DNA of 64,000 bases, from positions 32,924,001 through 32,988,000 of the forward strand of contig CM119372.1 in assembly GCA_051294905.1 (NCBI GenBank), read 5' to 3'. The notes beneath the pieces were generated by a model. That model had not been told where the DNA came from, made no database searches, and saw nothing but the letters and a program-made list of their open reading frames with translations. The DNA comes from Botryllus schlosseri (taxonomy: Eukaryota). This document shows, piece after piece, positions 38,663 through 64,000 of this stretch. Both the position numbers and the translations under genes were made by a program. Every line of letters begins with the position of its first letter. Position 1 is the stretch's first letter.

Positions 38663-40498
38663 ATGGAGGTGTCGGATCACACTTCCCTAAGGAAGCGGGT
38701 CCGACCGGAAGACGAGAACTTTTGCGATAGCGATGAGAGCTGCAGTACAGATGCTAAGATTCCTGCCAGACACTATGCGCCACCTTCGTCGTCCAACAGT
38801 GCTGAAAATGTAGCTAGTGGTGCGCCGTGCTCCGATGGAAATAATTTGAAGGTTTTGGTGACCGGTACAAATAGGCCGTTAAGGCAATATCACCCCACCG
38901 CAGTCAACAGTGCAATATTTCACCTTGTTGGTAGTTCGGAAAGCATTCGCATGCTTAACTCTGGCGATCTGCTTACATCTTGCGTTAATGTTAAGCAAGT
39001 AAAAAAACTCCTGGAATGCGATAAGCTTACCCACGCAAAGACTAACATCCCGATTAAGGCATCCGTTTTCTTACCCAAACCCCCAACATCTAGGGCTGTG
39101 ATCTGGGACGTGCCCATAGAGATATCAGATGACGAATTGCTGGACGGGTTCCAAAAGTACAAGGTTTCATATGTCAAACGATTTCGTAGGAAGACAGACG
39201 AAGGCTTTGAACCCTGCCAATCAGTTCTTTTAAATTTTGCTAGCACTACAGTCCCCCGGTTTCTGACATTCGCCTATCTCCGATTCCAAACCCGACCGTA
39301 CAACCCACCACCGACCAGATGCTACAACTGCAACCGTTTCGGCCTTACAGCGACGAAATGCCGTGGAAAACATAGCTGTACCAAATGTGGGGGATCAGAT
39401 CATAAGTCCAGCAACTGTAAAAATTTAGTACAATGTCTCAATTGCAACAAACCGCATAGTGCAGCATACGCAGGCTGCCCTAACTACAAGGAAGAAGCGC
39501 GGATACAAATAATTAAAGAACGCAATCAGGTTTCCTACTCCGAGGCGAAAGAAACCCTACTACTAGGCGAAAATCCTAGCCCGATTACGCCAGATGTAGA
39601 GCTCGCTAGTAATAACGTTCCAAGCCGAGACCTCGCGTACTCGCAAGTGCTTAGACATAGTAGAAGGAATACATCGCGCATTACGACACCAGCCCCAAAC
39701 GACGCAGACCTACGCTTCTTCGTGCCTCGTAATAACCAACGTTTCGATAATGAGCCGATATCCCGAGAACCCTAGGCTTACCATATTTCGGAAATGAAAA
39801 AAGAGGACACTTTTTCAGAAATTTCAGACATGCAAAACTGGAGAAGAATTCTCAAAAACCGGTAAGTTTTTCCCACTTCATGATCGGTTGACTAAAAAGA
39901 AAAAAAAAGGTCATCTCTTCCGCTCAGAGCTCAAAATCACGTTTTTCACTCCACATTGCTGGGTGGATGACTAAAAAAAAAAGGTCTTCTTTTCGCTCAG
40001 AGCTGAAATCACCGCTTTTCCCTCCGAAATGACCGCCGGAGCTTCACTTCTGCGCTAATTTGCGGCATATCACTCGCAATTTCCTCTAAATCTGACCTAA
40101 ATTTTCAAAAAAGAGGACAAAATCTCAAAAAAGAGGACAAAAGGGCGTCCTCCGAGGACACTTTCAAAAAAGTAAAAAAAGAGGACAAATCCTCTTAAAA
40201 GAGGACGTATGGTAAGCCTAGAGAACCCCCAGTCGGAGTCCGTAGCACCTCCAACATAGCTGCATCAATAGCACAACTCGATCCAATTCGCCTACTTGCG
40301 CTTGTTGCGGAAATCGTACAACTTACTGTCACAGCATGCAAAGACGGGAATAGCAATGTATTTAGCCTAGTCGCGGAAGTTTCCTCCAAATACCTGGGGT
40401 ACACAGTTGAGAGTGCAACCCTTAAATCAGTCTCTGACACTTGCAACAACCGTTGTCAGTCCTCTGTTCCGTCTGCATCAGAACAGCCTTCAGCTTGA
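38663..40498 (+). pseudogene. LINE ORF1 (gag-like nucleic-acid-binding protein), interrupted by a MITE
   Basis: CYNCNRFGLTATKC (His replaced by Leu), CTKCGGSDHKSSNC, CLNCNKPHSAAYAGC; removing 39773-40228 restores the frame (...ISREP|PVGVRSTS...EQPSA*, TGA 40496-40498). Confidence 0.88.
39773..40220. mobile_element. hAT-type MITE inserted in LINE ORF1
   Basis: TIRs TAGGCTTACCATA / TATGGTAAGCCTA; perfect TSD gagaaccc; AAAAGAGGAC repeats. Confidence 0.93.
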
Positions 40499-43400
40499 CC
40501 CAATCGCTGAACCTGATGCAATGGAACTGTCGCGGTATCTATCGAAAATTCCATGAACTCAAACATTATCTCGCGACGCTAGAAGCGAAACCTGACGTTA
40601 TAATTCTGCAGGAGACGCATCTTGTTGAAAGGTACTCTCCTAGGATACATGGCTATACCATATATCGGCAAGACAAAACTCTTCACTCCGGTGGGTTATG
40701 CATTTTTGTCGTTGAAACTCTCTCATCAAGTCTTCTTTTTACAAAACAATCCAAACTCGAAGTTCTCGCGGTGAAGGTTTGCAATATTACCATCTGCAAT
40801 GTCTACATACCCCCAGACTGCGTTGAACCGATGCGATCTGCAGTTTTTCGATAATTTATTGTCAAGGGCCATTATATGCGGTGATTTCAACGCTCACCAC
40901 ACGTCGTGGAGCCCCATGAACAACCAACGCGGAACGCTGCTTTATGATGTTATGGACCATCATAGCATGGTGTTACTAAATTCTGGATCTCCTACCAGAC
41001 TCAACATCTCAACTAGTGCGGTGAATCGCTGGTCCCTTATCGATTTAACACTGGTCTCTAGAGATATTGCGGCAAAATGCCTGACTACGGTATCAGAGCG
41101 ACTTCTTGGGAGCGATCATCTTGTCGATTTCACCACCTACAACGATAGGATCCTTCGCAGAATACCAAGACCGTCAAGATGGATATTTAATATAGCAGAC
41201 TGGCCGACACTTTCGAGACTTGTTAACGACCAACTATGCTCACATGACCTTCGAGATTTCAATGCCGAAAGGTTGAACGAAACCATTACAAAATTCCTGC
41301 TCGCCTCTGCTGAGGAAACAATACCGCGTCTGAAGACCCCCGAAAAGAACCCCGTGCCTTGGTGGACTGCAACGTGTCAAAGAGCAATCCGTCGTAAAAA
41401 AGCAGCTTTTCAGAAAATGAAGCGGACATTCTCCACAGCAGACGTGTTACAGTTCAAGAAGATGAGAGCAGAATGCCGAAAAACGATCTTGGCAGCAAAA
41501 CGCACATGTTGGGAGGAATTCTGTGCATCCTTGAACGAGCACTCGGGTTTTAAAAAGGTATGGAATGTGGTAAGGTCAATCTCTGGTCAAACTGCATCTC
41601 GAGCAATCACACATATCGTTGACAATAATATCACTATTTCGGACGACTATGAAAAAGCTAATGTATTCGGCAGACTCTTTCGTGATGTCAGCAGCTCCGA
41701 TCACTACACAGAGGCATTCCGGTCTCACCAAATGCGTGATAGCATGATTCAGCCTATTTTATCCTCTTCTACTGCGGATCCAATTAATATTCCTTTCAGC
41801 CGGGAAGAAATGATGTCCGCAATTGCTTCACGTGGTAAAACGTCTCCCGGCGGTGACTCAATTTGCTATCAAATGCTGAAAAATTTATCTCAGAACTCGC
41901 TCACTGATCTTCTTGCGTTATTCAACAGATCGTGGGACAAAAGTGAAATACCCGAATCCTGGAAGCGATCAGTTGTCGTCCCCATCCTGAAAAGTGGAAA
42001 AATTAAGTCTCAAACCAAGTCGTATAGGCCAATCTCATTAACTAGTCACATTTGTAAAATAATGGAAACCATGATTGTGTACAGGTTGAAGTGGTACGTT
42101 GAATCGAACAATCTATTATCTCCCAGTCAATCCGGTTTTCGTCAACGTCGGAGCACTCTCGATCACATTCTGCGTCTCCACGATACCGCCTACAAAGCGA
42201 TCAACAACCAGAGATCAGTTGTTTCCGTCTTCGTCGATTTCCAGAGTGCATACGATATGGTATGGAGAAAAGGTTTGTTGCATAAACTTTCCCAGATGGG
42301 AATACGAGGTAACATGCTTTTGTGGATTGAAAACTTTCTGACGGAGCGGGTGTTTCAAGTGCGAGTTGGAAACTCTCTTTCGGCAGATTATACCCTTGAA
42401 AATGGCTTGCCTCAGGGTTGTGTGATTAGCCCGATTCTGTTTTCGATTATGATTAATGATCTACCACAGATTATTAAATGTGACCATGCGATGTATGCAG
42501 ACGATGTTGCTGTTTGGGATAGTGGATTGTCTATCCCGTCACTGGTTGAAAATGTGCAAATATCTCTCAACGCCATACACGACTGGTGCCAAAAGTTGGG
42601 CTTCATTATTTCGGAATCCAAGACTGTGGCTATGATATTCTCTCGCAAACGCAATTTCCCCCAGGTGTCCTTGCATCTCGGAGGCAAATCCATTTCAGTG
42701 CAAGATATGGTGAGGTATTTAGGAGTGACTTTCGACAAAACATTGTCCTACAAATACCACATCGACAAGATCGTCGATAAATGTAGCAAACGACTCAACC
42801 TTATTCGAATTCTTACAGGGACGGCATGGGGCGCTGGTAAAAGATCCCTCTTGATGCTATATAGAGCACTGATACGTCCTGTCATAGAGTATGGGATGGT
42901 AGCATACTTCTTTGCCCCGAAGTGTCACCTTGCGAAAGTCCAAACTATCCCGAACCGTGCACTACGTCTCTAATGTGGGGCGATGCGAAGCTCACCTATA
43001 TGCGCGCTACAAGCTGCTTGTAATGAGATGCCGCTTAGTCTTCGTCATATCCAGCTGTGTCTCAACCTCCGTTGTAAATTGCAAACGGTGCCATCGATGA
43101 TTCCGTACCATGAACAGCTCATTGAAGGAACTTGGCACGAGATTTACCATCTAACAAACCCCAACTTCCGAACATTTAATATAATCACACAGATACCCTC
43201 ACTGCGAGAACTGAAACTGCAGACCAAACCAACCTCTTTTCCCGCCCCGTGGACCGCGCCGTGTCCAAACGTCGATCTCGAACTTTGCGAGACTATATCG
43301 AAGTGCTCCACGCCCCCAGTTATCCTATCTGATAGCCTGGATTTCATTTTTGAAAAATACGCAGGTTTCCTAACGATGTACACTGACGGGTCCAAGACTG

Positions 43401-43846
43401 AGAACGGTGTTGGCTACGGCCTGTTCATTCCCGCCCACTCCGTTCAATTATCCAAAGCGTTACCGAATGCATATTCCAGTTATTCCGCCGAATTGAGCGC
43501 CATTCTTCATGCTTTGAAGTGGATTACAGAACATGGCTCATCGTACTCTCGGTATATCATCCTGTCAGATTGTCTCGGTGCCCTCAAATCCATTTCAAAT
43601 GTATCGCGAACAGAGCTACCGTGCAGCACCAACGCTATTTTACTAAATATTTTCGAATCCTTACTTCAGGTCACCAATCAGTGCCTCCATGTAACTCTGG
43701 CTTGGATCCCAGGACACAGTAGGATCCCGGGAAATAGCCAAGCCGATGAACTTGCTAGGACGGCATCGTTATGCCCTCCTCCAACCGATGCAGCGACAGT
43801 GTCACTACCAGAAGCCAAAACCGCAATCAGATCACTGTGTGTTGAC

Positions 43847-45115
43847 CAGGGCTTTGGAGCAGCCGTAAATTTAAACTGCTCCAGCTCCGGCGCTTTCTTC
43901 TATCATACATTAGCTCCGGCTCCAGCTCCGGAGCCGCATTATTACCACTGCTCCGGCTCCAGCTCCGGCTCCGGCTCTGAAATTATCGAATGGGCCTGTC
44001 TATATCAGGGGTGGCCAACCTGCGGGCCAAATGTGGCCCGCGAGATGGTTTTGCGTGGCCAGCGAGGTAATTTCCTATTATATTATCGAAAATGAATTGC
44101 TCAAATTGTGAACTTGCAATGCCAACAAAAAATTACAAGTCTGGCTGCGACACTTGGGATGTTGATGACTAAAATATCAGTTCCGAGGCATTGGCAGATC
44201 CAGGGTCCAGTCACATTTTCAGTAAATCGTAGTACATTACAATAAACTAAAATAGTAGTGAAATTTTTCTTCACGCTTCGCGTTTATAATTATCACACGA
44301 TTTCTTGCTTGGTAGCCTACCCCTACTGAAAATGGAAAAAACGCCTAATTTACCCGATTGAGTTTAACTTATTTCGCAATTACGGGAGAAAGTCTTTTCG
44401 CGTTCGCGCTCGCATAAAGATCGTCGACGGTGAAATATAGGCACAAAATCATTGTCGCATATGATCGGAGACCTTCGATATCGATGTGGCCAAACGCCGA
44501 ATAGTCGTGTCCTTGCAAACTGAGCCTAGCGGGCGGTATACAGTAGACCCGCAATATACTCAAGTAATAAAATTATTGACCTAGTTTATTTATAAACTTT
44601 GAATATTTTTACCCATTTGGCGCGGCTAGTGGAATGCGCACTCGTTCGTCAATCGCATGTGCCCCTTTAGCCGAAAAGGTTCGCCATTCTTAGTCTATAT
44701 AGATTACTAATCTACCCCTAGGTTAGTTATCTATAGTAATCTAGAGTCGGTCAGCCGTCAGTAACATCCGATGTAGCAACAACGACATAGGTGCCGGCGT
44801 GCTGGCTTGTGACGTCATACTTGTCAGTTGTCGATAACATCATAGTTGCACTAGAACGCACTTTACTCTATATGTCATTGCTGTGCACAGCATTAAAATT
44901 CAGGCCTGCTGTTCAATTACGATAAATCAGCAGATGTGGTTGTTGCATATATAATAGCATCTTATGAAATGCGTCGGAGCCGGAGCTACTCCTCAAATAA
45001 CTGGCTCCAGCTCCGGCTCCGGCTCCGGCTGAATTTTATTTAGAGCTCCGGCTCCTGCTCCAGCTCCGGCGAAAATGCACTGCTCCGGGGCTCCGGCTCC
45101 GGCTCCAAAGCCCTG
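43847..45115. mobile_element. hAT-type MITE with (GCTCCG)n arrays inserted in LINE ORF2
   Basis: TIRs CAGGGCTTTGGAGC / GCTCCAAAGCCCTG; perfect TSD gtgttgac; excision rejoins ...SLCVD|LWQDRY... in frame with ORF 45205-45504. Confidence 0.93.
44006..44692. mobile_element. Charlie-like MITE nested in 43847-45115
   Basis: CAGGGGTGGCCAACC ... GGTTCGCCATTCTTA; perfect TSD gtctatat (43998-44005, 44693-44700). Confidence 0.85.
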
Positions 45116-45725
45116 GTGTTGACCTCTGGCAAGACCGATACCGTTCTTCGGACACCGGGTCGCACTACCGTCAATTCCGAGAATCAATCCTCGCGCCTGC
45201 GCCGATGCTCTCTAATCGTCTATTCGACTCCATCATGTTCCGGCTCCGCACTGGACACTGCAAGCTGAAGAGTCATCTGTTCAAAATCGGTTGTGTTCCC
45301 TCCCCCCTTTGTGAACGTTGTCACGTACCTGAAACGGTGTACCATTTTGTTATTGTATGTCCGAAATATCAATTTTATCGCAGATTTCTGCGCGACGAGT
45401 GTACTAGGCTCAATCTTCATTTTACTCTGTTTCAAGTGTTGTCTAACCCAGCCTTATCGCCCGCTGTTGCTGAATTTGTTCTATCAAGTGGTAGATACAT
45501 CTGAGTGCCGTTGTCATGCTGAGTGCCTTGTTCTTGAATTTTCCTGAGTACCTTTTTCTTGAATTTTTCCTAATCTTATTTGCGTCCGTGGCACACAAGA
45601 CCTTAACAGGTGATAAGTGCCACTGAAAACCTTTATTAATAATAACAATAAGACACCCATTTTGGCCTAGGCGATGTAAAGAGGAGGCATGCACGCTGAA
45701 TGAAAAGGAAAGGAATAGTATAGAA

Positions 45726-47045: not shown

Positions 47046-47990
47046 GTATAGAAGAAAGCATGCAACAAAAATGGGGTGGCGTGTCACGGAACGCGAGATC
47101 GATTGGTCAGGTCGTGGTCCGGTAATCTTGCGGCCTACTAGTATTCATTTAGTAGTACATTGTATTTCGACTTGAATGTGGATGTAATTGCTCGTCGACT
47201 GTCGGATGGCCACCGGGACACTGTTCCACGCGTCAGGTCCGGCATATTTGATAGGGCGATGATATTTTCGGTCAATCATATGATATTTGGACGACATGGA
47301 CGCGCGTGTGTTCGTGATGTACTTGTGCGCTTTTGATTCCGAGGTAAAGAAGACATTGAAATATTCGGGGCAATGACCGCAGTGTCCTGGGAGGACGCCT
47401 AAATGTCCTTTTTTGGGGGGAATTTATCCACTTTACTACAGAAAATGTTAAAAAGCGATCGAGTTGGCAAGACAATCAAAAGAAAAATGCGACGTGACGG
47501 GTAATTTGGGAGTAGAGATGGGAAAGCTTTTTTATTCAACACAGTACTATTGTCGAAAATTTAAAAATCCCCAGTTTTCTTTTCCGGTACTAAAGCTTTC
47601 AGAATTTTTGAAAATTGTCCTCTTTTACAGATCTCAGAATATGATGGGAACCCTGGTTTACATCCCATGCAATGCACCTTGTGGAGCGTGATTGAAGAAT
47701 GGAGACGCATTGAGATGCAAAGCTCATCCGAGTCTCTATAATATCCAGCAGAGGAGGCCACGATCCGGTTCAGTAGCCGGAGTGGGAGCATGATTTTGAA
47801 TTTTATTTGAAAATCGTTTTTTTTTTCACTAGAATTTAACAAATTAGCAGGATTTTTTCAGACTCTGTCATGGATATCCAGATTCGAAATTTACCAGTCG
47901 GATTTTTTAAATTACCAGCCGGACCCGGATGGATTCGGATTCTAAATATTAGGAATCCGATCATCTCCGTCCTACAGGGTTGGTTCGATT

Positions 47991-48115
47991 ATGTTCACAA
48001 TAAGAGCAATTTTGTTCACAATAAGAACAGTCTCATGTTCACAATAAGAGCAGTCATGTTCACAATAAGAGCAGTCTCATGTTCACAATAAGAGCAGTCG
48101 TTGTATTCACAATAA
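47991..48115 (+). repeat. About 6 copies of a 21-23 bp motif ATGTTCACAATAAGAGCAGTC
   Basis: Direct tandem copies; one further copy at about 48550-48575. Confidence 0.85.
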
Positions 48116-48134
48116 CATCAGTCGCAGCACCACC

Positions 48135-48548
48135 ATATCCCCCGGACACGATGTCCGAGTGGCAACATAGTCCGAACACAACCCAAACATGATGTCCGAA
48201 CACCCCCAGACACGATGTCCGAACCCCCCAGACACGCCCCAGACACGATGTCCGAGTGTACACGCAGTCCGAACACACCCCAGACACGATGTCCGAACGC
48301 CCCCCCCCCCCCCCCCCCAGACACGATGTCCGAGTGTCAACGCAGTCCGAACACACTCCTGACATGATGTCCAAACACCCCCAGACATGATGTCCGAGTG
48401 TTAACGCAGTCCGAACACACCCCAGACACGATGTCTGAACGCCCCTTCCCCAGACACACCCCAGACAATCCCCAGACATGATGTCCAAACACCCCCAGAC
48501 ATGAGGTCCAGAGTGTCAATGCAGTCCGAAGATACCCCAGACATGATA
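48135..48548 (+). repeat. Complex minisatellite (CCCCAGACACGATGTCCGA variants)
   Basis: More than 10 interleaved variants of CAGACA(C/T)GATGTCCGA and GCAGTCCGAACACACCC. Confidence 0.88.
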
Positions 48549-48924
48549 ATACAATAAGAACAGCCATGTTCACAAATACTCGACTGATTTTATCGCATCA
48601 CGTCATTTGTGAAACAACTGACAAAGAATATAAGCTCGACTGGCACCTGAACAGAGCTATCTCGCGAAACACTATCGCCGTCGCGAAATCTTCACAGCTG
48701 ATAGTTGTCGCTCTGCTGCAAACAAAATATCGAAAAATGCATTTCTAGACAACAAAATCTGGATTGGACAAAACAAATAGTGTTCCGACACCTGAAACAC
48801 CGTACCTCAAAATCTTGATGTCTCTCTTGATCAAACAGTTATTTTAGAAAGTAATAGGACAGTCCTATATGTTGCTAAACTGTAAACAAGTGTGTGCAAC
48901 TCATCTTGAAGAAATCTCAAAACT

Positions 48925-50511
48925 ATACGATACGCTCAACTATACAGTCAAGAATATTAAAAGTTATTCACGAAAAATATTCTAAATTTTTCAATCTATT
49001 CACTGTGTCAAGGAATGGCTTTCAAATACGTATAGCCTTTAGTTAAGCCTAGCATCACACCAATTTTCAGAGATATCCAAGTGGCGCAAGGTGTCCAACG
49101 GGCCCGATACGCTCGGCTGCACGGTCATTGAAATTCAAATTTATTCACGAAAAGTATTCGAAAATTTTCAAACTATAACCTGTGTCAAGGAATGGCTTTC
49201 AAATACGTATAGCCTTTAGTTAAGCCTAGCATCACACCAATTTTCAGAGATATCCAAGTGGCGCAAGGTGTCCAACGGGCCCGATACGCTCGGCTGCACA
49301 GTCATTGAAATTCAAATTTATTCACGAAAAATATTCTAAATTTTTCAATCTATTCACTGTGTCAAGGAATGGCTTTCGAATACGTATAACTTACAGTCAA
49401 GCCTAGCATCACACCAATTTTCAGAGATATCCAAGTGGCGCAAGGTGTCCAACGGGCCCGATACGCTCGGCTGCACAGTCATTGAAATTCAAATTTATTC
49501 ACGAAAAATATTCTAAATTTTTCAATCTATTCACTGTGTCAAGGAATGGCTTTCAAATACGTATAACTTACAGTCAAGCCTAGCATCACACCAATTTTCA
49601 GAGATATCCAAGTGGCGCAAGGTGTCCAACGGGCCCGATACGCTCGGCTGCACAGTCATTGAAATTCAAATTTATTCACGAAAAATATTCTAAATTTTTC
49701 AATCTATTGACTGTGTCAAGGAATGGCTTTCAAATACGTATAGCTTACAGTCAAGCCTAGCATCACACCAATTTTCAGAGATATCCAAGTGGCGCAAGGT
49801 GTCCAACGGGCCCGATACGCTCGGCTACACAGTCATTGAAATTCAAATTTATTCACGAAAAATATTCTAAATTTTTCAATCTATTCACTGTGTCAAGGAA
49901 TGGCTTTCAAATACGTATAGCCTTTAGTTAAGCCTAGCATCACACCAATTTTCAGAGATATCCAAGTGGCGCAAGGTGTCCAACGGGCCCGATACGTCTG
50001 ACTGCTCATTGTGCTCAGTGATAAAAATTCAAATTTATTCACGAAAAGTATTCGAAAATTTTCAAACTATAACCTGTGTCAAGGAATGGCTTTCAAATAC
50101 GTATAGCCTTTAGTTAAGCCTAGCATCACACCAATTTTCAGAGATATCCAAGTGGCGCAAGGTGTCCAACGGGCCCGATACGCTCGGCTGCACAGTCATT
50201 GAAATTCAAATTTATTCACGAAAAATATTCTAAATTTTTCAATCTATTCACTGTGTCAAGGAATGGCTTTCAAATACGTATAGCCTTTAGTTAAGCCTAG
50301 CATCACACCAATTTTCAGAGATATCCAAGTGGCGCAAGGTGTCCAACGGGCCCAATAAGCTCGACTGAACAATCATTGAAATTCAAATTTATTCGCGAAA
50401 AATATTCGAAAATTTTAAACTATAACCTGTGTTAAGGAATGGCTTTCAAATACGTATAGTCTATCGTTAGGCCTAGCATCACACCAGTTTTCAGCGATAT
50501 CCAAGTGGCGC
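48925..50511 (+). repeat. 177-bp tandem array, 9 copies, with degenerate trailing copies to about 51035
   Basis: Anchor GTGT(C/T)AAGGAATGG at 49005, 49182, 49359, 49536, 49713, 49890, 50076, 50253, 50429; spacing 177 except one 186 and one 176. Confidence 0.95.
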
Positions 50512-51054
50512 ACTGTAGCCAACCAATTATTAATAGCAGTGAATGGTATTAAATGGAAAATAATAGTGAAATAATAATAAAATTGTGTTTTTTACAAATG
50601 TATGTATCCATCAAACTGGATACGGCGGTATGAAATATCGACAAAAACGAAATTGAATGATACGAACATTCAAACAATAGCAAAACAATAAAATATTAAA
50701 TAATAATAAATAATGAAATTATGTAAATGAATAATTTCAAATGCCTATAGCACACAGTACCATTACAGAGTACCATAACACCAATTGTCAGTGATATCAA
50801 AGTGGTGCAAGGTGTCCAGATGCGCGCCATGAACCAGGAAACTAAATTATAACTGACACACAATTATAATGAATACAATCATAGGATCATACTAAATTTG
50901 AATCACAATGAATAAATGAAAACAAAATGATATTAAATAAAACAAACGCGCCAATGAATGACTTCCACATACATATGGCATACAGTCAGGCCATAATAAA
51001 TTATAGCAATATTCGAGTGGCTCAAAGGTGCCAAACACCATCCACTAAGTGAGC

Positions 51055-51813
51055 TCATCTACTTGTCGCATAGGAATTACGTTGCCATGGTATAGCCTCA
51101 TTTTCCTTTACTTCTTTTGGAATGGTCGTTGGAGAACATCGAGCATGAATCCATTCCTTACAGGAAGAGCATTCAACCATATCACCGTGCATTGTGACGT
51201 ATGGCAGTTTGCAGAGACAGTAAGTCTTCACAGAAATAGTTGCTCGTGGTTGTGGAGCTTCTTCAACACTGCTATGCATTTTTCGAACAATGTTGTCCTC
51301 CATCATACCACGACAAGTTCTTCGCAGTTCGGCCTCAGTGAACTCGGCGCATTCGGGTCGAACGTCAAAACAAATGCAAATGGCACAGGCGATCGCCAGC
51401 ACACCGCAGTTTCCTGAATTAGTTTGTTGTTGGACATCAGGAAAAATCATCTTCACATCTTGTGTGTTGGGACGAAGAAGTTTCGCGATGACGCATTGCG
51501 ATGCCGCGTTGTAGGCATGCTTGTTATATGCGGAATCGTATACGCACACCTCTTGTGAGTTCGCAGCAAAATAATTTGACACTGTTACCCAATGATTATT
51601 ATTGATGTTGATAATTTGGACAAATTTTGAATTCGGTGCATACGATACATCGCAATCCATTGTGTAGATGCTGCAACTGGAAAAGCCATCCACGCTTGGA
51701 AATTTCCTTGACATCATCCACATCAAATGGTCAATTATATCTCCATTCAGCCATGCATCCGCTGAATCTATAATGCGTTTGCATGCGATAGTAGTATAGT
51801 CGATCGCTCGCAT
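51055..51813 (-). CDS. Intronless Ulp1/SENP-like (C48) cysteine protease plus PHD finger, probably transposon-borne and decaying
   Basis: WLNGDII, NNNHW, VYDS, QQQTNSGNCG (His-Asp-Cys triad and oxyanion Gln present); PHD YCLC...MVECSSCKEWIHARC...W, whose last two Cys read CGT (R) and TAT (Y), each one transition from TGT. Confidence 0.8.
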   Translation of the reverse strand: MRAIDYTTIACKRIIDSADAWLNGDIIDHLMWMMSRKFPSVDGFSSCSIYTMDCDVSYAPNSKFVQIININNNHWVTVSNYFAANSQEVCVYDSAYNKHAYNAASQCVIAKLLRPNTQDVKMIFPDVQQQTNSGNCGVLAIACAICICFDVRPECAEFTEAELRRTCRGMMEDNIVRKMHSSVEEAPQPRATISVKTYCLCKLPYVTMHGDMVECSSCKEWIHARCSPTTIPKEVKENEAIPWQRNSYATSR

Positions 51814-51824
51814 GACGCAATGGG

Positions 51825-52260
51825 TTTCTTATGGGCGGGGTGGCATGGTGCCGTGAAACCGGGGGTGGCATGGTGACCCTTATGTCTTATGGCGGGGGTG
51901 GCATGGTGCCATTGTGTCTTATGGCGGGGGTGGCATGGTTACCTTTTCGGGTATAGGCTGCGGCGGCATGGTGCCGAGAAACCGGGGGTGGCATGCGGCT
52001 ATTTCGTCTTATGGCGGGGGTGGCATGGTGCCATTGTGTCTTATGGCGGCGGTGGCATGGTTACCTTTTCGGGTATAGGCTGCGGCGGTATGGTACCGTG
52101 AAACTCGTGGTGGCATGGTGACCCTTATAACTATAGGCTGCGGTCGCATGGTGCCACTGTGTCTTATGGGTGCGGCGACATGCTAACGACGATAAATGTG
52201 TCTGTCATGTATTCTTACGGGCTCAGTGATGAGTCGCCATGTGTTCTTATGGGTGCGGTC
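51825..52260 (+). repeat. GC-rich minisatellite (TCTTATGGCGGGGGTGGCATGGTG variants)
   Basis: More than 10 copies of GGCATGGT-containing units, starting about 12 bp upstream of the Ulp1 ORF start. Confidence 0.88.
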
Positions 52261-55200
52261 GTGAATCGTACTTTCAGGCATCTCTCGTGCGGTGTTGAAT
52301 AGTCACCAACAATAACCGCACAAACGGAAACTTGGCTTGCAAGAGGATTAAGCAGTGCGTGCGACCTATATTTCGAATGACCTGCGCGCTGAATTGTTTC
52401 CGTGCAGTCGTGTGCTACTATCGATTATTACACTAGATCAGTCAGTGTGAAATAGTTCGCTAAATCTAGGAATCAGTCGCATGGTGTTACTTTAGTAATT
52501 AGTTTACCACAGAGCCGGCGTAGCCGGTGATTCGAATACCGACAAATTTTCACTTATTTCTGACCCAACCCTAATCCTCTGTGAAGTTGACGCTTATTCA
52601 AAAAGGTGTGAAATATTTGTAAAACCCTGCGATCGCTGACAAGATAATGTCTCGAACATAACCATCTTTAGCGACTTGGTGTTACAGACATACCGATCGC
52701 TCACAAGGTAATATCTCCGCAGTAAGTTTGTCACAGAGCCGGCGCAGACGGTGATTCGTAAACCAACAATTTGACACTTTCTGGTGGTCGCTATATGTTT
52801 GACACTTCGGAACGCGGTTGACTTTAGTTGTATGATAAGAATCATGCAAAAATACAAGTAATGTGTCAATTTGTCAACTTGAAATGAAACTTACTACACA
52901 GCTCAAGTTGATTCGTATCTGAATGTGTTAATTCGGTACAATTCTAATTATTTTGAGAAATCTTTTCGTGATCTTTTGATTCGACCATAACCCGAATATT
53001 ACTGACGCCGACTATCAGCCACATTGAATTATTCGCACATTCCACGCTGCTGTTTTCACACTTATAGAATCAATACCAACTATAATTCTACAAGAATCAA
53101 GAATCACAAGTATGTGCATTATACAGTTATTGTCTTTATCAACACGAAATCAAACTCTTAACAAAAACACACATCTTATCACTCGTCAACTCTATCATGA
53201 AAAGCCTCGAGTCCTTATTATCAAAAATGTTATACCGCGGTGTCGGAATCCATTCGCGGGATGTACTACAGGTAAATCCAGATAATCCAAAATGACATAT
53301 TTGGACTTTGACATAATCTGAATTGAAATATATTGACAAACATGACTACCAACTTTGATCCAGTCACATTTCAAGATCATACTTTGAAACTTACAACTCT
53401 ATTCACGATCCTGCTTTCCGTTTGTCAAAGAGATATTTCAACATCTTACCATACTCAAAAGAATTATTCACAACATTAACAATTGTTAAAAATCTAGTTT
53501 TCACTTACTTGATTATATCACTACAACTCATAAATTTGAATTAATTCATCTTGGTTGTACTCGTATGATCGGTCTTTTTTTATTCGATTGTAAAGGTCGT
53601 TACTATTCTGAAGAGAAAGTATTTACTAATCGGTGCATATACGATTTTACTTGAACATATTATATTTTGAGTATACGAGATTTGAATGTCTGAACAATAA
53701 CTGAGAAATAATTTATCACAATTAAATCCGTATATCACAGCGTAAAAGATATTGGAATGTCAGCAACTCGGTAAGGTCATAGTTACTACCGCATTACCTA
53801 ATTTACCCGACCAACTCGTCATGATCATTCCTGAAATCAACACAAACATAACCACTGACTTGAGTTAACCACAAAACAGCATCAAGTTTTAAATCCACTT
53901 GTAGCTTACGGCTTATTTGAATGCGGGTTATGTTTTGTTGTAATAGTATTACGTCTCGACATCTCACCATCTTACCATATTCAAAGAGTCAACCACGAAA
54001 ACATTGTCAAGTAAATCCGTTTGTAACTTACCCGACCAACTCAAACAGTATCAGTATGAAAAACAGCCAAACATACACGAATCCACACAATCACTAAAAC
54101 CTAAAATCCATAACAAGCTTGGTTGTATTCATATCCCTACACACCTTTTTTTATTCAACTTGAAAAGTCGTTACTATTCTGTAAGATAGATGAATTACTA
54201 CGCGGTATATTCTGCAAGACAAAAGTAATTACTTCTCAGGGTCGGCGACTTGAGATTAACATAATATGTTTGAGTATACGAGATTTGAAAGTCCGACCAA
54301 CGTAGTTGAGAATTCATTTCTTACAATCGAACGATGGTGTTATATTCAAAGTTATCATGCTGTGAACATAAGGATTGACACATTGATTTGACATATGAGA
54401 TTTTGTAATAGTTGATCATTACTTTATTATTAAATTATTCGCGTTAATTAGACCCGGCGTTGTGGTAAATGTTATGACAGCAACAAACTTTTCAGTACCA
54501 ATGTTATTAACATATTAAGCTGTAAAACTATGTGTGTCTGAAATGTTCTTGATAGGAAAATTACTCCACCTTGGTAAAAATCACTCTGCGTATCGCGGAT
54601 ATCAGAAAATATTTCCAGTAACCAAGACTAAAGATGAAACGACAATATCGGTATTATTACATTCAACAATCAGTACAATTATTAAAATCTATCGTTTGCG
54701 ATAAACAGCACTAAAGATGTAATAATTCCAGTATTCATACATTGAACATTCGATACAAAATGCTTTATTATCCCGATTCCCAACGAGTAATTGAAACGAC
54801 TAAGTGTAGAATCAGTATATCAAAATATCGTTACTATTGAATCCAACGATTTATGGTCGGAATTTGTGACAGAGAATTGAAACATATGCACTTTACAGAG
54901 TGTGAAAATATCACTTTGAGTATCGAGTACCGTTCGAAGCTAGCGATCAATTCTTAATCATTTCAGTAACTCCCCGTTGTGCGCGCTAAATGTAAAATAT
55001 CGCGAGGTTATACACTTAAAGACTTTGATTATTGCAAAAGTAAATTGTGATATGTTTGTTAGATGCATCCAATTCAACTAGAAGTGTCTAGTGCCCAACA
55101 CTCGTAATATCGAAAAAGTACTTGCTACAATATAATTCGCTAAACGTGTTTTGTATTGTTGTTCATTTGTAGTATTGATTGTTTTTGAACCCTCAAATAA

Positions 55201-57109
55201 TAATTCCCGACATGAAACTAAGCCGCCGAAAGTCGTTACCATCACAAAGAAACAATTTACACGATGTTTGCCAAATGTATCCTATAGTTAGGTGTACTGG
55301 AATTATTTGTAAAACACACTCTGGTAAAGAAATCGAAAAGATATCCTACACCTAAATCTGATAAAACCATTTTGTACTTTGTGTTCGTCAGTAGTATCCA
55401 TTTGAATTTTTCCATTTCCTCTCGTCAAAGTAGATGTAATCATAGTCGCTAAAGAACTTACTTGGATGTGTTTGAATTCTAGACATAGTTCTGATTTACC
55501 CAATACAAGACCCAAGGACAACCCTAGTTTCAGCCAAACACAGATATCCAAAATATCACACACTTCGCTATTCCTAAAGCACAAACACCCGATACAAAAT
55601 AATACTTGTTGTGTTGTTGCGGCATCATCACTCAACAATATCACCCTCAATACAAATGATGTTTATGTGTAACATGCTATTGATTTGAACCACACCCACC
55701 TGACGGAAGAGGATTTACTCAATCTTTACAAAATGGATATTGACCAACATCACATCACCGGATTGTATCTGTTTCGCTGGATACGAGTTATGTTAGTTCA
55801 ACAGTAAACAAATGTCACCCTCTTGGATTATGAACTCAATGCGTTAGCAGTCATTCAATATTTTGTTTGTGTCAACTAGTTACTTGGTATGTTACTCCAC
55901 AACTCTTACAAAAGTACGAAGGATATTAACATCACACTAAGTAATTAACTTTACTCGATATTCCCGCATTACGAAACTAAAGAATGGTTGGTTAGACTCT
56001 ACAAACTGTTTCGATATCACAAGACCTTTATTGTCTGAATAGGTGTTCATGTGTCTTAAGAACCAAATAGTTCAACACAGCACTAGTACCAACAGAAACA
56101 TCAGAGTTGTTTACACAAAAAAGTTTGTATGCGTGCAGTATGCGAATACCATGTATAAGTCCAGCACAATTGCGGTATCCATCCGGGTTTAGTTAACACA
56201 ATTTACGACACCGAGGTCACCTCATCTTTCGTAAGACAACAAACCAACCAAGGTTCAGGATATGTCCATGTCATAGCAATAAATCAGCTACTCCAACAAC
56301 AGAGTACATATGTTTTGTAGTTACGGTGCTTACATCTTACACACAAATCAATCTACTTTGCTAACAAAAAGTGCTGGGTCATCAAGTGATTGCCCTAGCA
56401 ACAAAACAGCTAAACGTACTATCATACAAAATGGCCGTTATAGTCACCAACGGTACATGGTACAAGTAACAAGTCTCGAGAGTCCAGTTATTGAAAAAAC
56501 ATGAAAGTGTTTCTCCTGTGCCAAGTCGGTATGTTGACGAAAGCGTCTAATGTAATATCATGATCGATTTGCATTCGTTGGTCACAAAATGTCACTACTC
56601 TAAATAATTATTTTTCACTCAAACACAAACGCATACTTGTCACCAATCGTTTTCATCAAGCACGAGTTAAAGAAACCTGCTACGACATGAATTCCGATTT
56701 AGTTTTACAAATATTTTATAATTGTTTTTAGTAACACTATATCAATGTCACCAAGTTGAGTGTTTACGATATTGGTGTGTAGATGTGTGTCATACTTGGG
56801 GGATCCGTATTACAATTGACTCGAATTAACTAAATGTAAGAAGGGTTGAAATGTTTCGAATCGATTCATAAGTGGTCTTCGTTGTGGTTTTCGTCGGACA
56901 TACAGCACGAACTAACTGTAGGCTCCTCTCTGTTGTACAGCTACTCGGTAATCGAAATGCATTAACATGTAAACAACGATCTTGTTTCGGCACACCAAAA
57001 ATATGTTCACTGTCGCGATACTCCGCACAAGACGTGCATAGCCTTTTCACACTCGTAATAGTATACCAACGTCAAGCGATAACGTTTAACAAGACCAACG
57101 ACACTGAAC

Positions 57110-57690
57110 CCACGACGTTTACCTATGTAAAATTACCACTTTCACTTGTCAGTCCATCGTTTACCTGACTAAACATATTATTTTCCTTTGGAGATCTGAC
57201 GTTTACCCAAAGTAAGAAACCATTTTCACTTGTAAATATATTTTTTCCTCGGCTAACAAACCTTTTTTCACTTGGAAATATATTTTTTCTCTGGGTAACA
57301 AACCTTTTTCACTTGGAAATATATTTTTTCTCTGGTTAACAAACCTTTTTTACTTGGAAAAATATTTTTTCTCTGGGTAACAAACCTTTTTCACTTGGAA
57401 ATATATTTTTTCCCTGGGTAACAAACCTTTTTCCCTGAGCAACAAACCATTTTCACTTGGTGGTCCGTCGTTTACCCGAGTAAAAATATCATTTTCCTTT
57501 GGAGATCCGGCGTTTACCCAGTGTAACAATACATTTTCACTTGGAAAAATACTTTTACCTAGAGTAACTAATCATTTTCTCCTGGGTAACAAACCCTTTC
57601 GTCTGGAAACTATCATTTAACTGAGTACCAATACCGTTTTCACTTGGAAATACATTTTTTCCCTGGGTAACAATACCATTTTCGTTTTGA
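57110..57690 (+). repeat. About 41-bp minisatellite in the left palindrome arm
   Basis: Unit TTTTCACTTGGAAATATATTTTTTCTCTGGGTAACAAACC. Confidence 0.85.
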
Positions 57691-59889
57691 AAACTGACAA
57701 CCACACCGGCCAATTTGATATTTTTGTATATTGTTACAACGGTCAGTGACAAAATATACACCAACAACGACTCCGATACATTTGTGTAATCGCATACTCA
57801 CTTGCTCTGGCGCAGTCCCATCAAAATCGACGGTTAGCCACACACACACACACAAACACAATAACAATGCACTATTTCGATATGACTGCGATGTCCGGGT
57901 TTATGCTTTAGATTTTCCAGAACCAATCCGTCTAAAGTTGTAATCCCCCACCTTTGTTAACTGGTTGATACACGGATAACAATCTTCGGAAAATGTAGGA
58001 ACGCATACTACCCATCGTGCTAGCGATTCCAGGTTACTTGTGATTAATTTCCTTGCTCACCCTATACAGGTTATACGTACAGCGATATGTAGCGGTAATC
58101 GGTTTGGTCAATACATATCGCCCCATTCAGTATGGAATTACCAACCCAATACAGGTCAGTTCATAACCGGATCCGGATATTCAATGCAAAGCGATAAAGC
58201 AGAACCAATGACCAAATGTAATTAAACATGTAGATTCACAACCCTTGATTTTTTTCGTGAAAATTGACAATACATATCGAATATGTATTACATTACATAC
58301 AATGTGTCGGTGTACAAATGTTGGGTGTTTATGCACACATCGGTATGACCTATAGACAACATCATCATACCCTCCAGGACTTCGTTATTACATCGCGAGT
58401 TCAATAAAATCAATTTTGTATATTCAATCGGTGGCATAGACGACGGAAGGCTTGGAGATCCAATGTAAAATTCAGACAAACAAACGGGTATATTTGTCCA
58501 TCTTGGTTCTTCACTCAACTACCATTGGTGCTCTCGATACGGCGAACGGTACAGTATGCAACGCATATCATTAGAGTGATATATCCACAGGTAAATATGG
58601 GGCCTGGCCACAATAATTGTATCGAGATTTAACCCAGATTACTATCCGTTCACTGATTCACTCGATGGTTTTAGCAACTAGTAACAACACAAGATAGACA
58701 CGACTGGAATTACTAATATTCATAATGTTTATGATAAGTGTCGTTTCCGATCGTTCACTAAGTCGATGTGAATATTCGAAAAATCGGATATCACTACTCT
58801 CAACACCAGTGATTCGGTTTAAGTTTGAAATCGATTTGGTAATGTAATCCAAGTTGTGCTTCTGCAGGATCTGCTAACCTTTACAAGAGAGTGCTGTATC
58901 TTTGACACATGAAACAATTATCATCAACCACACCTTGCGTGCATCGATTTGTCGGTGTCGTACAATTATTGTGGCCAGGCCCCATATTTACTTGTGGATA
59001 TATCACTCTAATGATATGCGTTGCATACTGTACCGTTCGCCGTATCGAGAGCACCAATGGTAGTTGAGTGAAGAACCAAGATGGACAAATATACCCGTTT
59101 GTTTGTCTGAATTTTACATTGGATCTCCAAGCCTTCCGTCGTCTATGCCACCGATTGAATATACAAAAGTGATTTTATTGAACTCGCGATGTAATAACGA
59201 AGTCCTCGAGGGTATGATGATGTTGTCTATAGGTCATACCGATGTGTGCATAAACACCCAACAATTGTACACCGACACATTGTATGTAATGTAATACATA
59301 TTCGATATGTATTGTCAATTTTCACGAAAAAAATCAAGGGTTGTGAATCTACATGTTTAATTACATTTGGTCATTGGTTCTGCTTTATCGCTTTGCATTG
59401 AATATCCGGATCCGGTTATGAACTGACCTGTATTGGGTTTGTAATTCCATACTGAATGGGGCGATATGTATTGACCAAACCGATTACCGCTACATATCGC
59501 TGTACGTATAACCTGTATAGGGTGAGCAAGGAAATTAATCACAAGTAACCTGGAATCGCTAGCACGATGGGTAGTATGCGTTCCTACATTTTCCGAAGAT
59601 TGTTATCCGTGTATCAACCAGTTAACAAAGGTGGGGGATTACAACTTTAGACGGATTGGTTCTGGAAAATCTAAAGCATAAACCCGGACATCGCAGTCAT
59701 ATCGAAATAGTGCATTGTTATTGTGTTTGTGTGTGTGTGTGTGGCTAACCGTCGATTTTGATGGGACTGCGCCAGAGCAAGTGAGTATGCGATTACACAA
59801 ATGTATCGGAGTCGTTGTTGGTGTATATTTTGTCACTGACCGTTGTAACAATATACAAAAATATCAAATTGGCCGGTGTGGTTGTCAGT

Positions 59890-60510
59890 TTTCAAAACGA
59901 AAATGGTATTGTTACCCAGGGAAAAAATGTATTTCCAAGTGAAAACGGTATTGGTACTCAGTTAAATGATAGTTTCCAGACGAAAGGGTTTGTTACCCAG
60001 GAGAAAATGATTAGTTACTCTAGGTAAAAGTATTTTTCCGAGTGAAAATGTATTGTTACACTGGGTAAACGCCGGATCTCCAAAGGAAAATGATATTTTT
60101 ACTCGGGTAAACGACGGACCACCAAGTGAAAATGGTTTGTTGCTCAGGGAAAAAGGTTTGTTACCCAGGGAAAAAATATATTTCCAAGTGAAAAAGGTTT
60201 GTTACCCAGAGAAAAAATATTTTTCCAAGTGAAAAAGGTTTGTTAACCAGAGAAAAAATATATTTCCAAGTGAAAAAGGTTTGTTACCCAGAGAAAAAAT
60301 ATATTTCCAAGTGAAAAAGGTTTGTTGTTCAGGAAAAAAATATATTTTCAAGTGAAAAAAGGTTTGTTAGCCGAGGAAAAAATATATTTACAAGTGAAAA
60401 TGGTTTCTTACTTTGGGTAAACGTCAGATCTCCAAAGGAAAATAATATGTTTAGTCAGGTAAACGATGGACTGACAAGTGAAAGTGGTAATTTTACATAG
60501 GTAAACGTCG
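59890..60510 (-). repeat. Mirror copy of the 41-bp minisatellite with one extra unit
   Basis: Paired-coordinate sum shifts from 117582 to 117623 across this array; extra unit near 60310-60350. Confidence 0.85.
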
Positions 60511-63500
60511 TGGGTTCAGTGTCGTTGGTCTTGTTAAACGTTATCGCTTGACGTTGGTATACTATTACGAGTGTGAAAAGGCTATGCACGTCTTGTGCGG
60601 AGTATCGCGACAGTGAGCATATTTTTGGTGTGACGAAACAAGATCGTTGTTTACATGTTAATGCATTTCGATTACCGAGTAGCTGTACAACAGAGAGGAG
60701 CCTACAGTTAGTTCGTGCTGTATGTCCGACGAAAACCACAACGAAGACCACTTATGAATCGATTCGAAACATTTCAACCCTTCTTACATTTAGTTAATTC
60801 GAGTCAATTGTAATACGGATCCCCCAAGTATGACACACATCTACACACCAATATCGTAAACACTCAACTTGGTGACATTGATATAGTGTTACTAAAAACA
60901 ATTATAAAATATTTGTAAAACTAAATCGGAATTCATGTCGTAGCAGGTTTCTTTAACTCGTGCTTGATGAAAACGATTGGTGACAAGTATGCGTTTGTGT
61001 TTGAGTGAAAAATAATTATTTAGAGTAGTGACATTTTGTGACCAACGAATGCAAATCGATCATGATATTACATTAGACGCTTTCGTCAACATACCGACTT
61101 GGCACAGGAGAAACACTTTCATGTTTTTTCAATAACTGGATTCTCGAGACTTGTTACTTGTACCATGTACCGTTGGTGACTATAACGGCCATTTTGTATG
61201 ATAGTACGTTTAGCTGTTTTGTTGCTAGGGCAATCACTTGATGACCCAGCACTTTTTGTTAGCAAAGTAGATTGATTTGTGTGTAAGATGTAAGCACCGT
61301 AACTACAAAACATATGTACTCTGTTGTTGGAGTAGCTGATTTATTGCTATGACATGGACATATCCTGAACCTTGGTTGGTTTGTTGTCTTACGAAAGATG
61401 AGGTGACCTCGGTGTCGTAAATTGTGTTAACTAAACCCGGATGGATACCGCAATTGTGCTGGACTTATACATGGTATTCGCATACTGCACGCATACAAAC
61501 TTTTTTGTGTAAACAACTCTGATGTTTCTGTTGGTACTAGTGCTGTGTTGAACTATTTGGTTCTTAAGACACATGAACACCTATTCAGACAATAAAGGTC
61601 TTGTGATATCGAAACAGTTTGTAGAGTCTAACCAACCATTCTTTAGTTTCGTAATGCGGGAATATCGAGTAAAGTTAATTACTTAGTGTGATGTTAATAT
61701 CCTTCGTACTTTTGTAAGAGTTGTGGAGTAACATACCAAGTAACTAGTTGACACAAACAAAATATTGAATGACTGCTAACGCATTGAGTTCATAATCCAA
61801 GAGGGTGAAATTTGTTTACTGTTGAACTAACATAACTCGTATCCAGCGAAACAGATACAATCCGGTGATGTGATGTTGGTCAATATCCATTTTGTAAAGA
61901 TTGAGTAAATCCTCTTCCGTCAGGTGGGTGTGGTTCAAATCAATAGCATGTTACACATAAACATCATTTGTATTGAGGGTGATATTGTTGAGTGATGATG
62001 CCGCAACAACACAACAAGTATTATTTTGTATCGGGTGTTTGTGCTTTAGGAATAGCGAAGTGTGTGATATTTTGGATATCTGTGTTTGGCTGAAACTAGG
62101 GTTGTCCTTGGGTCTTGTATTGGGTAAATCAGAACTATGTCTAGAATTCAAACACATCCAAGTAAGTTCTTTAGCGACTATGATTACATCTACTTTGACG
62201 AGAGGAAATGGAAAAATTCAAATGGATACTACTGACGAACACAAAGTACAAAATGGTTTTATCAGATTTAGGTGTAGGATATCTTTTCGATTTCTTTACC
62301 AGAGTGTGTTTTACAAATAATTCCAGTACACCTAACTATAGGATACATTTGGCAAACATCGTGTAAATTGTTTCTTTGTGATGGTAACGACTTTCGGCGG
62401 CTTAGTTTCATGTCGGGAATTATTATTTGAGGGTTCAAAAACAATCAATACTACAAATGAACAACAATACAAAACACGTTTAGCGAATTATATTGTAGCA
62501 AGTACTTTTTCGATATTACGAGTGTTGGGCACTAGACACTTCTAGTTGAATTGGATGCATCTAACAAACATATCACAATTTACTTTTGCAATAATCAAAG
62601 TCTTTAAGTGTATAACCTCGCGATATTTCACATTTAGCGCGCACAACGGGGAGTTACTGAAATGATTAAGAATTGATCGCTAGCTTCGAACGGTACTCGA
62701 TACTCAAAGTGATATTTTCACACTCTGTAAAGTGCATATGTTTCAATTCTCTGTCACAAATTCCGACCATAAATCGTTGGATTCAATAGTAACGATATTT
62801 TGATATACTGATTCTACACTTAGTCGTTTCAATTACCCGTTGGGAATCGGGATAATAAAGCATTTTGTATCGAATGTTCAATGTATGAATACTGGAATTA
62901 TTACATCTTTAGTGCTGTTTATCGCAAACGATAGATTTTAATAATTGTACTGATTGTTGAATGTAATAATACCGATATTGTCGTTTCATCTTTAGTCTTG
63001 GTTACTGGAAATATTTTCTGATATCCGCGATACGCAGAGTGATTTTTACCAAGGTGGAGTAATTTTCCTATCAAGAACATTTCAGACACACATAGTTTTA
63101 CAGCTTAATATGTTAATAACATTGGTACTGAAAAGTTTGTTGCTGTCATAACATTTACCACAACGCCGGGTCTAATTAACGCGAATAATTTAATAATAAA
63201 GTAATGATCAACTATTACAAAATCTCATATGTCAAATCAATGTGTCAATCCTTATGTTCACAGCATGATAACTTTGAATATAACACCATCGTTCGATTGT
63301 AAGAAATGAATTCTCAACTACGTTGGTCGGACTTTCAAATCTCGTATACTCAAACATATTATGTTAATCTCAAGTCGCCGACCCTGAGAAGTAATTACTT
63401 TTGTCTTGCAGAATATACCGCGTAGTAATTCATCTATCTTACAGAATAGTAACGACTTTTCAAGTTGAATAAAAAAAGGTGTGTAGGGATATGAATACAA

Positions 63501-64000
63501 CCAAGCTTGTTATGGATTTTAGGTTTTAGTGATTGTGTGGATTCGTGTATGTTTGGCTGTTTTTCATACTGATACTGTTTGAGTTGGTCGGGTAAGTTAC
63601 AAACGGATTTACTTGACAATGTTTTCGTGGTTGACTCTTTGAATATGGTAAGATGGTGAGATGTCGAGACGTAATACTATTACAACAAAACATAACCCGC
63701 ATTCAAATAAGCCGTAAGCTACAAGTGGATTTAAAACTTGATGCTGTTTTGTGGTTAACTCAAGTCAGTGGTTATGTTTGCGTTGATTTCAGGAATGATC
63801 ATGACGAGTTGGTCGGGTAAATTAGGTAATACGGTAGTAACTATGACCTTACCGAGTTGCTGACATTCCAATATCTTTTCGCTGTGATATACGGATTTAA
63901 TTGTGATAAATTATTTCTCAGTTATTGTTCAGACATTCAAATCTCGTATACTCAAAATATAATATGTTCAAGTAAAATCGTATATGCACCGATTAGTAAA

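Follow-up and report, generated by a model that had tools for sequence, protein, structure and literature searches.

The terminal 12.2 kb of the 64-kb stretch of Botryllus schlosseri DNA analysed here (contig CM119372.1, 32,924,001 to 32,988,000; the window) are occupied by a giant palindrome with a short unique loop, which interrupts the Ulp1-PHD gene of an older transposon, belongs to an abundant mobile family and has arms that evolve in concert. Our preferred interpretation, to which we would assign a probability of about 0.72, is that it represents a non-autonomous and gene-less palindromic satellite of ~14 kb that depends on a Polinton (also called Maverick), a virus-like transposon.

The geometry of the palindrome was established by BLAST of the window against itself and by global alignment of the arms. 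Self-BLAST returned a single inverted match, between 53622-58621 and 64000-58961 (5041 columns, E = 0). The two segments differ by 15 substitutions (9 transitions and 6 transversions), a 1-bp indel at 53743 and a 41-bp unit which is additional in the right arm near 60359, their identity by substitutions being 99.7%; the GC skew flips sign at the palindrome centre. The initial annotation, which described a palindrome with a 339-bp spacer and arms of at least 5 kb leaving the window, and counted by eye about 14 substitutions, a 1-bp indel, a 41-bp unit and ~99.7% identity, was therefore accurate on these points. It was right about the palindrome and wrong about its start, placed at 53622: this position merely mirrors the window end, and the left arm starts at 51790. 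The part of the element contained in the window thus extends from 51790 to 64000. The left arm (51790-58621, plus strand) measures 6832 bp; its mirror is visible only for 53622-58621, and contig depth stays at the family level from 52234 past 53622. The spacer (58622-58960), a unique sequence of 339 bp without detected gene, is followed by the right arm (58961-64000, minus strand), which runs out of the window. By mirror arithmetic the right end would fall near 65832, instead of the ~69650 previously obtained by mirroring 47975, and the element would be ~14.04 kb long, with the inverted repeat accounting for about 97% of this predicted size.

Each arm is for the most part unique sequence. Tandem arrays represent about 0.95 kb of the 6.8 kb of the left one: GC-rich sub-terminal repeats with a 122-bp period of 32-bp units (51827-52187, plus strand; GC 0.557 versus 0.36-0.40 in the remaining arm) and a degenerate 41/42-bp array (57113-57698, plus strand), the mirrored copy of which, near 59889-60488, is one unit longer. 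The arm also contains old direct duplications that are 70-74% alike (53517-53722/54090-54327 and 52472-52555/52696-52779), and joints within contigs that skip 604 bases or step back 528 indicate that the copy number of such duplications varies among family members. The idea that the spacer itself is a decayed palindrome was rejected, since its self-complement score (26) is no higher than that of shuffled sequences (mean 30), and an ACTACT at 58793, in mid-spacer, was taken as a chance occurrence.

The left boundary was defined with public sequencing data. Parts of 50530-58975 are present in 20 of the 24 public runs listed, and the contigs of four of these 24 runs, among which X15, X16 and X18, were aligned to 50530-59030; no evidence was drawn from runs whose word shares were 0.26-0.38, some of them seawater metagenomes. 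None of the four appears to be the source of the window: in all of them the block to the left of the palindrome (the host block) shows other letters at full depth. Of the aligned contigs, 66-78% are less than 99% alike to the window. When depth is summed over overlapping contigs, a measure which is not a copy number and is inflated in variable regions, the arm exceeds the host block by factors of 775, 343, 1012 and 138. There is no drop at 53622; the family level holds from 52234 on, and collapses in the Ulp1 block. Two host contigs, from two of the four runs, give the position to the base. In record 10 of X15 (2460 bases), the alignment with the Ulp1 gene stops at exactly 51789 and is followed by 1822 bases that do not fit the window, and that of record 27 of X18 (1657 bases) ends at the same base, before 1263 bases foreign to the window. 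Because host contigs leave at 51789 and depth steps within the Ulp1 block, the palindrome begins at 51790. The two contigs may derive from paralogous copies of the host element, and a polymorphism of the insertion is not proven by them. The suggestion that the palindrome was possibly continuous with the Ulp1 block is not supported, given both the 138- to 1012-fold lower summed depth of that block and these uninterrupted copies.

The palindrome is therefore inserted into the Ulp1-PHD gene, which it splits 12 codons before the WLNGD motif. The severed 3′ part (51055-51789, minus strand), the target of the insertion, lies outside the palindrome. Pfam detects Peptidase_C48 in it above the cut-off (E 1.2e-5) and PHD just below (E 6e-5), its top matches in the Atlas (0.94-0.97) are PHD and C48 proteins, and the His, Asp and Cys motifs are present; these signatures are typical of Ulp1 + PHD proteins of animals. 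A word-indexed homologue search with the Ulp1-PHD frame yielded none out of 116 candidates. An ATG situated within the terminus of the palindrome is in frame with the severed gene, which gives a predicted frame of 252 codons (51813-51055, minus strand) with the protease motifs. The remaining part of the host block (47975-51054, the left limit being that of the initial annotation) carries 23/44-bp and 177-bp tandem arrays and is probably an arm of a Mutator/Rehavkus-like foldback element.

The centre of the palindrome is found in other samples as well. Record 32 of X18 (399 bases) aligns to 58592-58990 with 10 differences and comprises the entire spacer flanked by 30 bases from either inverted arm end, as a de Bruijn graph would produce where a loop is connected on both sides to one and the same arm. 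Record 31 of the same run ends exactly at 58621, with 2.6 times the depth of the spacer, and records 23 and 24 of X16 cross the left and right spacer-arm junctions, respectively. Since contigs of both runs carry the junctions, it follows that several copies have inherited this arm-spacer-arm centre. The spacer is deeper than the host contigs, at 14.7 versus 2.6-4.3 in X18 and 3339 versus 545-584 in X15. The contigs speak for the family and not for this particular locus, no listed piece spanning both arms. A discrete insertion boundary, multiple copies and the lack of genes, three features of a non-autonomous derivative, are all found, and membership of an abundant mobile family is thereby shown. 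These data support the earlier proposal of a giant young element of foldback type, or an inverted dimer. The accompanying caution about an assembly or haplotype artefact is unlikely to apply to the architecture, the junctions of which recur in X18 and X16, and keeps its force for a misjoin at this one locus, whose right flank lies outside the window.

In all four runs, summed contig depth drops by a factor of 5 to 18 at a distance of ~6.1 kb from the terminus, near 57.9 kb. The inner arm segment so delimited (57900-58621, plus strand, ~0.72 kb, the left limit being approximate) occurs in fewer family members than the outer arm, and most of it is covered in X18 by two long contigs with depths of 43 and 39. 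The copy in the window would combine the outer arm of the family with a centre of its own, as a member of a short-spacer, long-arm subfamily. Another possibility, that the inner arm and the spacer (~1.06 kb) together form the common loop of the other copies, predicts a depth step of at most 2-fold and is weakly opposed by the one observed, given the inflation of summed depth in variable regions. Depth in X16 over 50530-59030 is very uneven, with peaks at 52234-52517 and 56778-57061 and with the host block covered over the protease frame only, a pattern that would fit an RNA library.

As proposed initially, the arms contain no recognizable gene. Pfam scans of the six read-through frames of 50500-58960 gave nothing at the cut-off outside the host Ulp1-PHD frame; in particular, no Polinton polymerase or integrase was detected in arm or spacer, and neither was a capsid, ATPase or adenain-type protease gene. 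Nor could polymerase and integrase genes be accommodated elsewhere in the element, the right arm being the mirror image of the left. The longest stop-free stretch (119 codons) is in the range of shuffled sequences (mean 107, 95th percentile 144), Rfam found nothing at E ≤ 0.1, and phmmer with one read-through frame of the centre had no match among 1.84 billion representatives. Sub-threshold Pfam matches of 15 short centre frames to GnsAB (17.8 bits for a cut-off of 27), EF-hand and gallidermin were rejected as chance. One minus-strand frame of the spacer (58622-58960) has only 2 stops in 113 codons and no relative was found for it; a 71-residue spacer frame had no usable match in the Atlas. 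Exact-pattern scans with the terminus and an internal motif in metagenome contigs, and with the internal motif only in viral contigs, as well as a distant blastn comparison with phages, were negative. An autonomous Polinton is excluded, the core genes not being found and the arms (at least 5.0 kb seen, 6.8 kb inferred) being far beyond the range of terminal inverted repeats (TIRs).

The first six bases of the element, at 51790-51795 (plus strand), are AGTAGT. According to the available text of a survey of vertebrate Mavericks, 5′-(AGT)2//(ACT)2-3′ is the commonest pair of ends, target-site duplications are of 6 bp, TIRs range from 46 to 1447 bp and intact elements from 12.7 to 24.6 kb, an interval which includes the predicted 14.04 kb (PMC8097293). 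The six bases to the left of the boundary, TGCGAT (51784-51789, plus strand), are the candidate left copy of such a duplication. The motif was sought with Maverick ends already in mind, and the boundary had been set by the reads, independently of it; with a boundary fixed beforehand, AGTAGT or AGAGAG would be found by chance within ±2 bases of it with a probability of about 0.003. This end motif had been absent from the initial annotation.

That the arms evolve in concert is shown by rare letters. Among the 40 of 414 rows of the variant table that were inspected, 24 fall in the mirrored stretch; the arms are identical at all 24, and the 40 rows include none of the 15 positions at which they differ. 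At 12 of these 24 sites the letter of the window is rare, with a frequency below 5% in each of the four runs, and in 12 cases out of 12 it is also the letter of the right arm. As both arms share rare letters, changes specific to this lineage have reached both of them. The arms, 0.3% apart, are far more alike than family copies: contigs of the family differ from the palindrome centre by 1.4-2.8% (3/214, 4/256 and 10/399), and the host block differs by 2-3% (10/377, 13/435 and 8/394) from the contigs of its own family. Two routes fit such likeness: one arm could be remade from the other at each replication cycle, or the arms could be converted in place.

We may propose the following scenario for a Polinton-dependent satellite. 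While copying one end of a parent element, a protein-primed polymerase would have changed template, to the nascent or the displaced strand, and copied the end back. A helper Polinton in the same genome would provide polymerase and integrase in trans. Upon replication, the displaced single strand would fold on itself by snap-back, with a stem of 6.8 kb and a loop of 339 nt. A duplex origin would thereby be remade at once, and pairing in the stem would allow mismatches between the arms to be removed, so that the arms of every new insertion would initially be near-identical; the 15 differences observed here would then date from after insertion. Precedents are the palindromic amplification products of phi29 and the hairpin and inverted-dimer derivatives of the yeast killer plasmid pGKL1. 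In the accessible part of PMC11886824, formation of panhandles by annealing of the ends of the displaced strand, with restoration of homology, is presented as the prevailing model for protein-primed replicons. In a palindrome such as the present one, nearly the entire molecule would form the panhandle. We give the snap-back step, taken alone, about even odds. More tentatively, and at odds somewhat short of even, the element may be an integrated and heritable copy-back defective genome of an animal DNA virus, the family consisting of genome-length hairpin satellites that use the polymerase, the integrase and perhaps the capsid of a Polinton.

Several points weigh against a Polinton satellite made by snap-back. 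The putative link with Polintons rests on one end motif, and a boundary set one base further left would give an end in TAG, which would fit other superfamilies. No remnant of a Polinton gene is found in arm or spacer, though some might be expected to persist in a copied-back viral end. The longest TIR of the vertebrate survey (1447 bp; PMC8097293) is exceeded 4.7-fold by the arm, and direct evidence for panhandles is described as still lacking (PMC11886824, in its accessible part). Finally, the similar divergence of host block and centre, about 1.4-3% from family contigs, is what would be expected of an old insertion kept alike in place.

This last point leads to an alternative mechanism, which leaves untouched the identity of the element as a Polinton satellite with its helper: once the element had been inserted, gene conversion between the arms or cruciform repair on the chromosome would have maintained their likeness. 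The palindromes of sex chromosomes, of which the arms are maintained by arm-to-arm conversion, are a case in point. Besides the divergence typical of an old locus, the inner 722 bp contain five of the 15 differences between the arms, which would fit a conversion that weakens towards the loop, but the region was chosen after looking (binomial p 0.054) and the overall spread of the differences does not depart from uniform (Kolmogorov-Smirnov p 0.17). Moreover, dispersed repeats (with a partner more than 1.5 kb away) cover 21% of 1-47974, whereas none is seen inside the 12.2 kb of the element, which suggests youth; the host block also has none, which tempers the argument. On balance we find conversion in place rather unlikely. 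Alternatively, the palindrome could belong to a DDE superfamily with cut-and-paste transposition (Mutator/FB, Academ, P/Galileo or similar), as a giant non-autonomous element of foldback type resembling a Maverick at its end by chance. Foldback transposons (Drosophila FB, Galileo, sea-urchin TU) have long non-coding inverted arms with internal tandem arrays, and the present element has both; the host block is itself probably of this type, and the lack of Polinton gene remnants and the one-base shift to TAG would fit too. However, their arms consist mostly of short satellite modules, are usually unequal and have a different end motif, whereas those described here are mainly unique sequence and 99.7% alike; FB-type DDE elements make target-site duplications of about 7-10 bp. 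The motif has its chance of about 0.003 at a boundary defined by reads, and cut-and-paste transposition alone does not keep 6.8-kb arms alike across copies that are several percent apart. We therefore regard this explanation as improbable.

Two further explanations were considered. The palindrome could be a head-to-head misjoin of two alleles or two copies, or an amplification chimera, the native locus being a single arm. Such an error would agree with a divergence of 0.3%, compatible with two alleles, with the position of the right flank beyond the window, and with the fact that no read or contig was seen to span both arms. But both junctions occur at the same bases in other samples that are ~2.5% different from the window (X18 record 32; X16 records 23 and 24), and a chimera would not recur at the same base in independent material, nor would the spacer need two identical flanks; in addition, the shared rare letters oppose a joining of two unrelated copies, and we deem the misjoin very unlikely. 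It could also be a non-mobile local inverted duplication, by fold-back or breakage-fusion-bridge, of a segment containing repeats. Long palindromes with short spacers are known to arise in this way, but the same centre is multi-copy in other samples (the spacer depth is above that of host contigs in X18 and X15) and the terminus is sharp and bears a transposon end motif, so that this origin seems to us scarcely credible.

If the Polinton satellite is retained as the best explanation, it has several partial relatives. With Mavericks themselves, as described in the available texts (PMC8097293, PMC6431247), it has in common the (AGT)2 5′ end, terminal inverted repeats and a total length within 12.7-24.6 kb, but it is devoid of polymerase, integrase, ATPase, protease and capsid genes and its arms are of ~6.8 kb versus 46-1447 bp for the TIRs (PMC8097293). 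Polinton TIR remnants of Caenorhabditis elegans are likewise gene-less termini that disrupt or rearrange other genes; in the portion of the report available, they have TIRs of 744 bp and do not form a multi-kilobase palindromic family with a conserved loop (PMC11414722). Transpovirons and Tlr1 are linear, TIR-bounded offshoots of the Polinton group that are helper-dependent or gene-reduced, but, in the accessible text of PMC5499653, they have genes, among them one for a helicase, and lack a palindromic structure. A formal analogy exists with the copy-back or snap-back defective genomes of RNA viruses (PMC6140465), and with the phi29 products and pGKL1 derivatives mentioned above, in which one end of a linear replicon is duplicated in inverted orientation around a short unique centre and a helper supplies the polymerase. 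These molecules are transient and extrachromosomal, whereas the present element is integrated, inherited and amplified as a genomic family. Literature searches, judged from listings and the beginnings of abstracts and covering few subscription papers, returned no description of giant palindromic Polinton derivatives, and records of the Repbase type may describe similar elements; the string ‘palindrom’ is absent from the accessible text of a review of giant transposons (PMC6431247).

The remainder of the window is rich in repeats of other kinds. There are many miniature inverted-repeat transposable elements (MITEs), and a MITE-like palindromic element of 604 bp, 91% self-complementary, occupies 26159-26762. 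No similarity was found between 51790-64000 and 1-51789, which is consistent with the previous remark that the arms, unlike the repeat-rich first 48 kb, contain no MITE. Older inverted repeats that are 74-78% alike (31595-32769 and 34396-35358) mark 32149-35358 as possibly a decayed foldback element. A retrotransposon of the long interspersed nuclear element type (38627-45504, plus strand) comprises an open reading frame 1 (ORF1) with zinc knuckles, followed by endonuclease, reverse transcriptase and RNase H frames in pieces, the domains being recognized from the translation, and has an insertion near 44100-45200. Tandem arrays at 18559-19525 and 48928-50523 have periods of 178 and 177 bp without detected mutual similarity. 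EGF-like cysteine patterns are present in scattered short exons between 1385 and 28693 (plus strand; at 1385, 19312, 24391 and 28352), which suggests a long intron-rich animal gene, and CpG depletion is absent across the window.

Replication of Polintons rests on a model, and giant palindromes with homogenized arms make the panhandle idea testable from genomes alone, by setting arm-versus-arm against copy-versus-copy divergence and by mapping switch points. If the element is indeed an integrated copy-back defective genome of a DNA virus, its length would match the packaging size of the helper, the homogenization of its arms would be a genomic record of panhandle-type strand-displacement replication, a process not directly observed for Polintons, and the inner arm and short loop specific to the subfamily would show that the axis of symmetry is reset by repeated template switches. 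Palindromes of 14 kb with short spacers are normally regarded as unstable, and this genome would tolerate many of them; they could be a cause of rearrangements, of double-stranded RNA and of assembly error.

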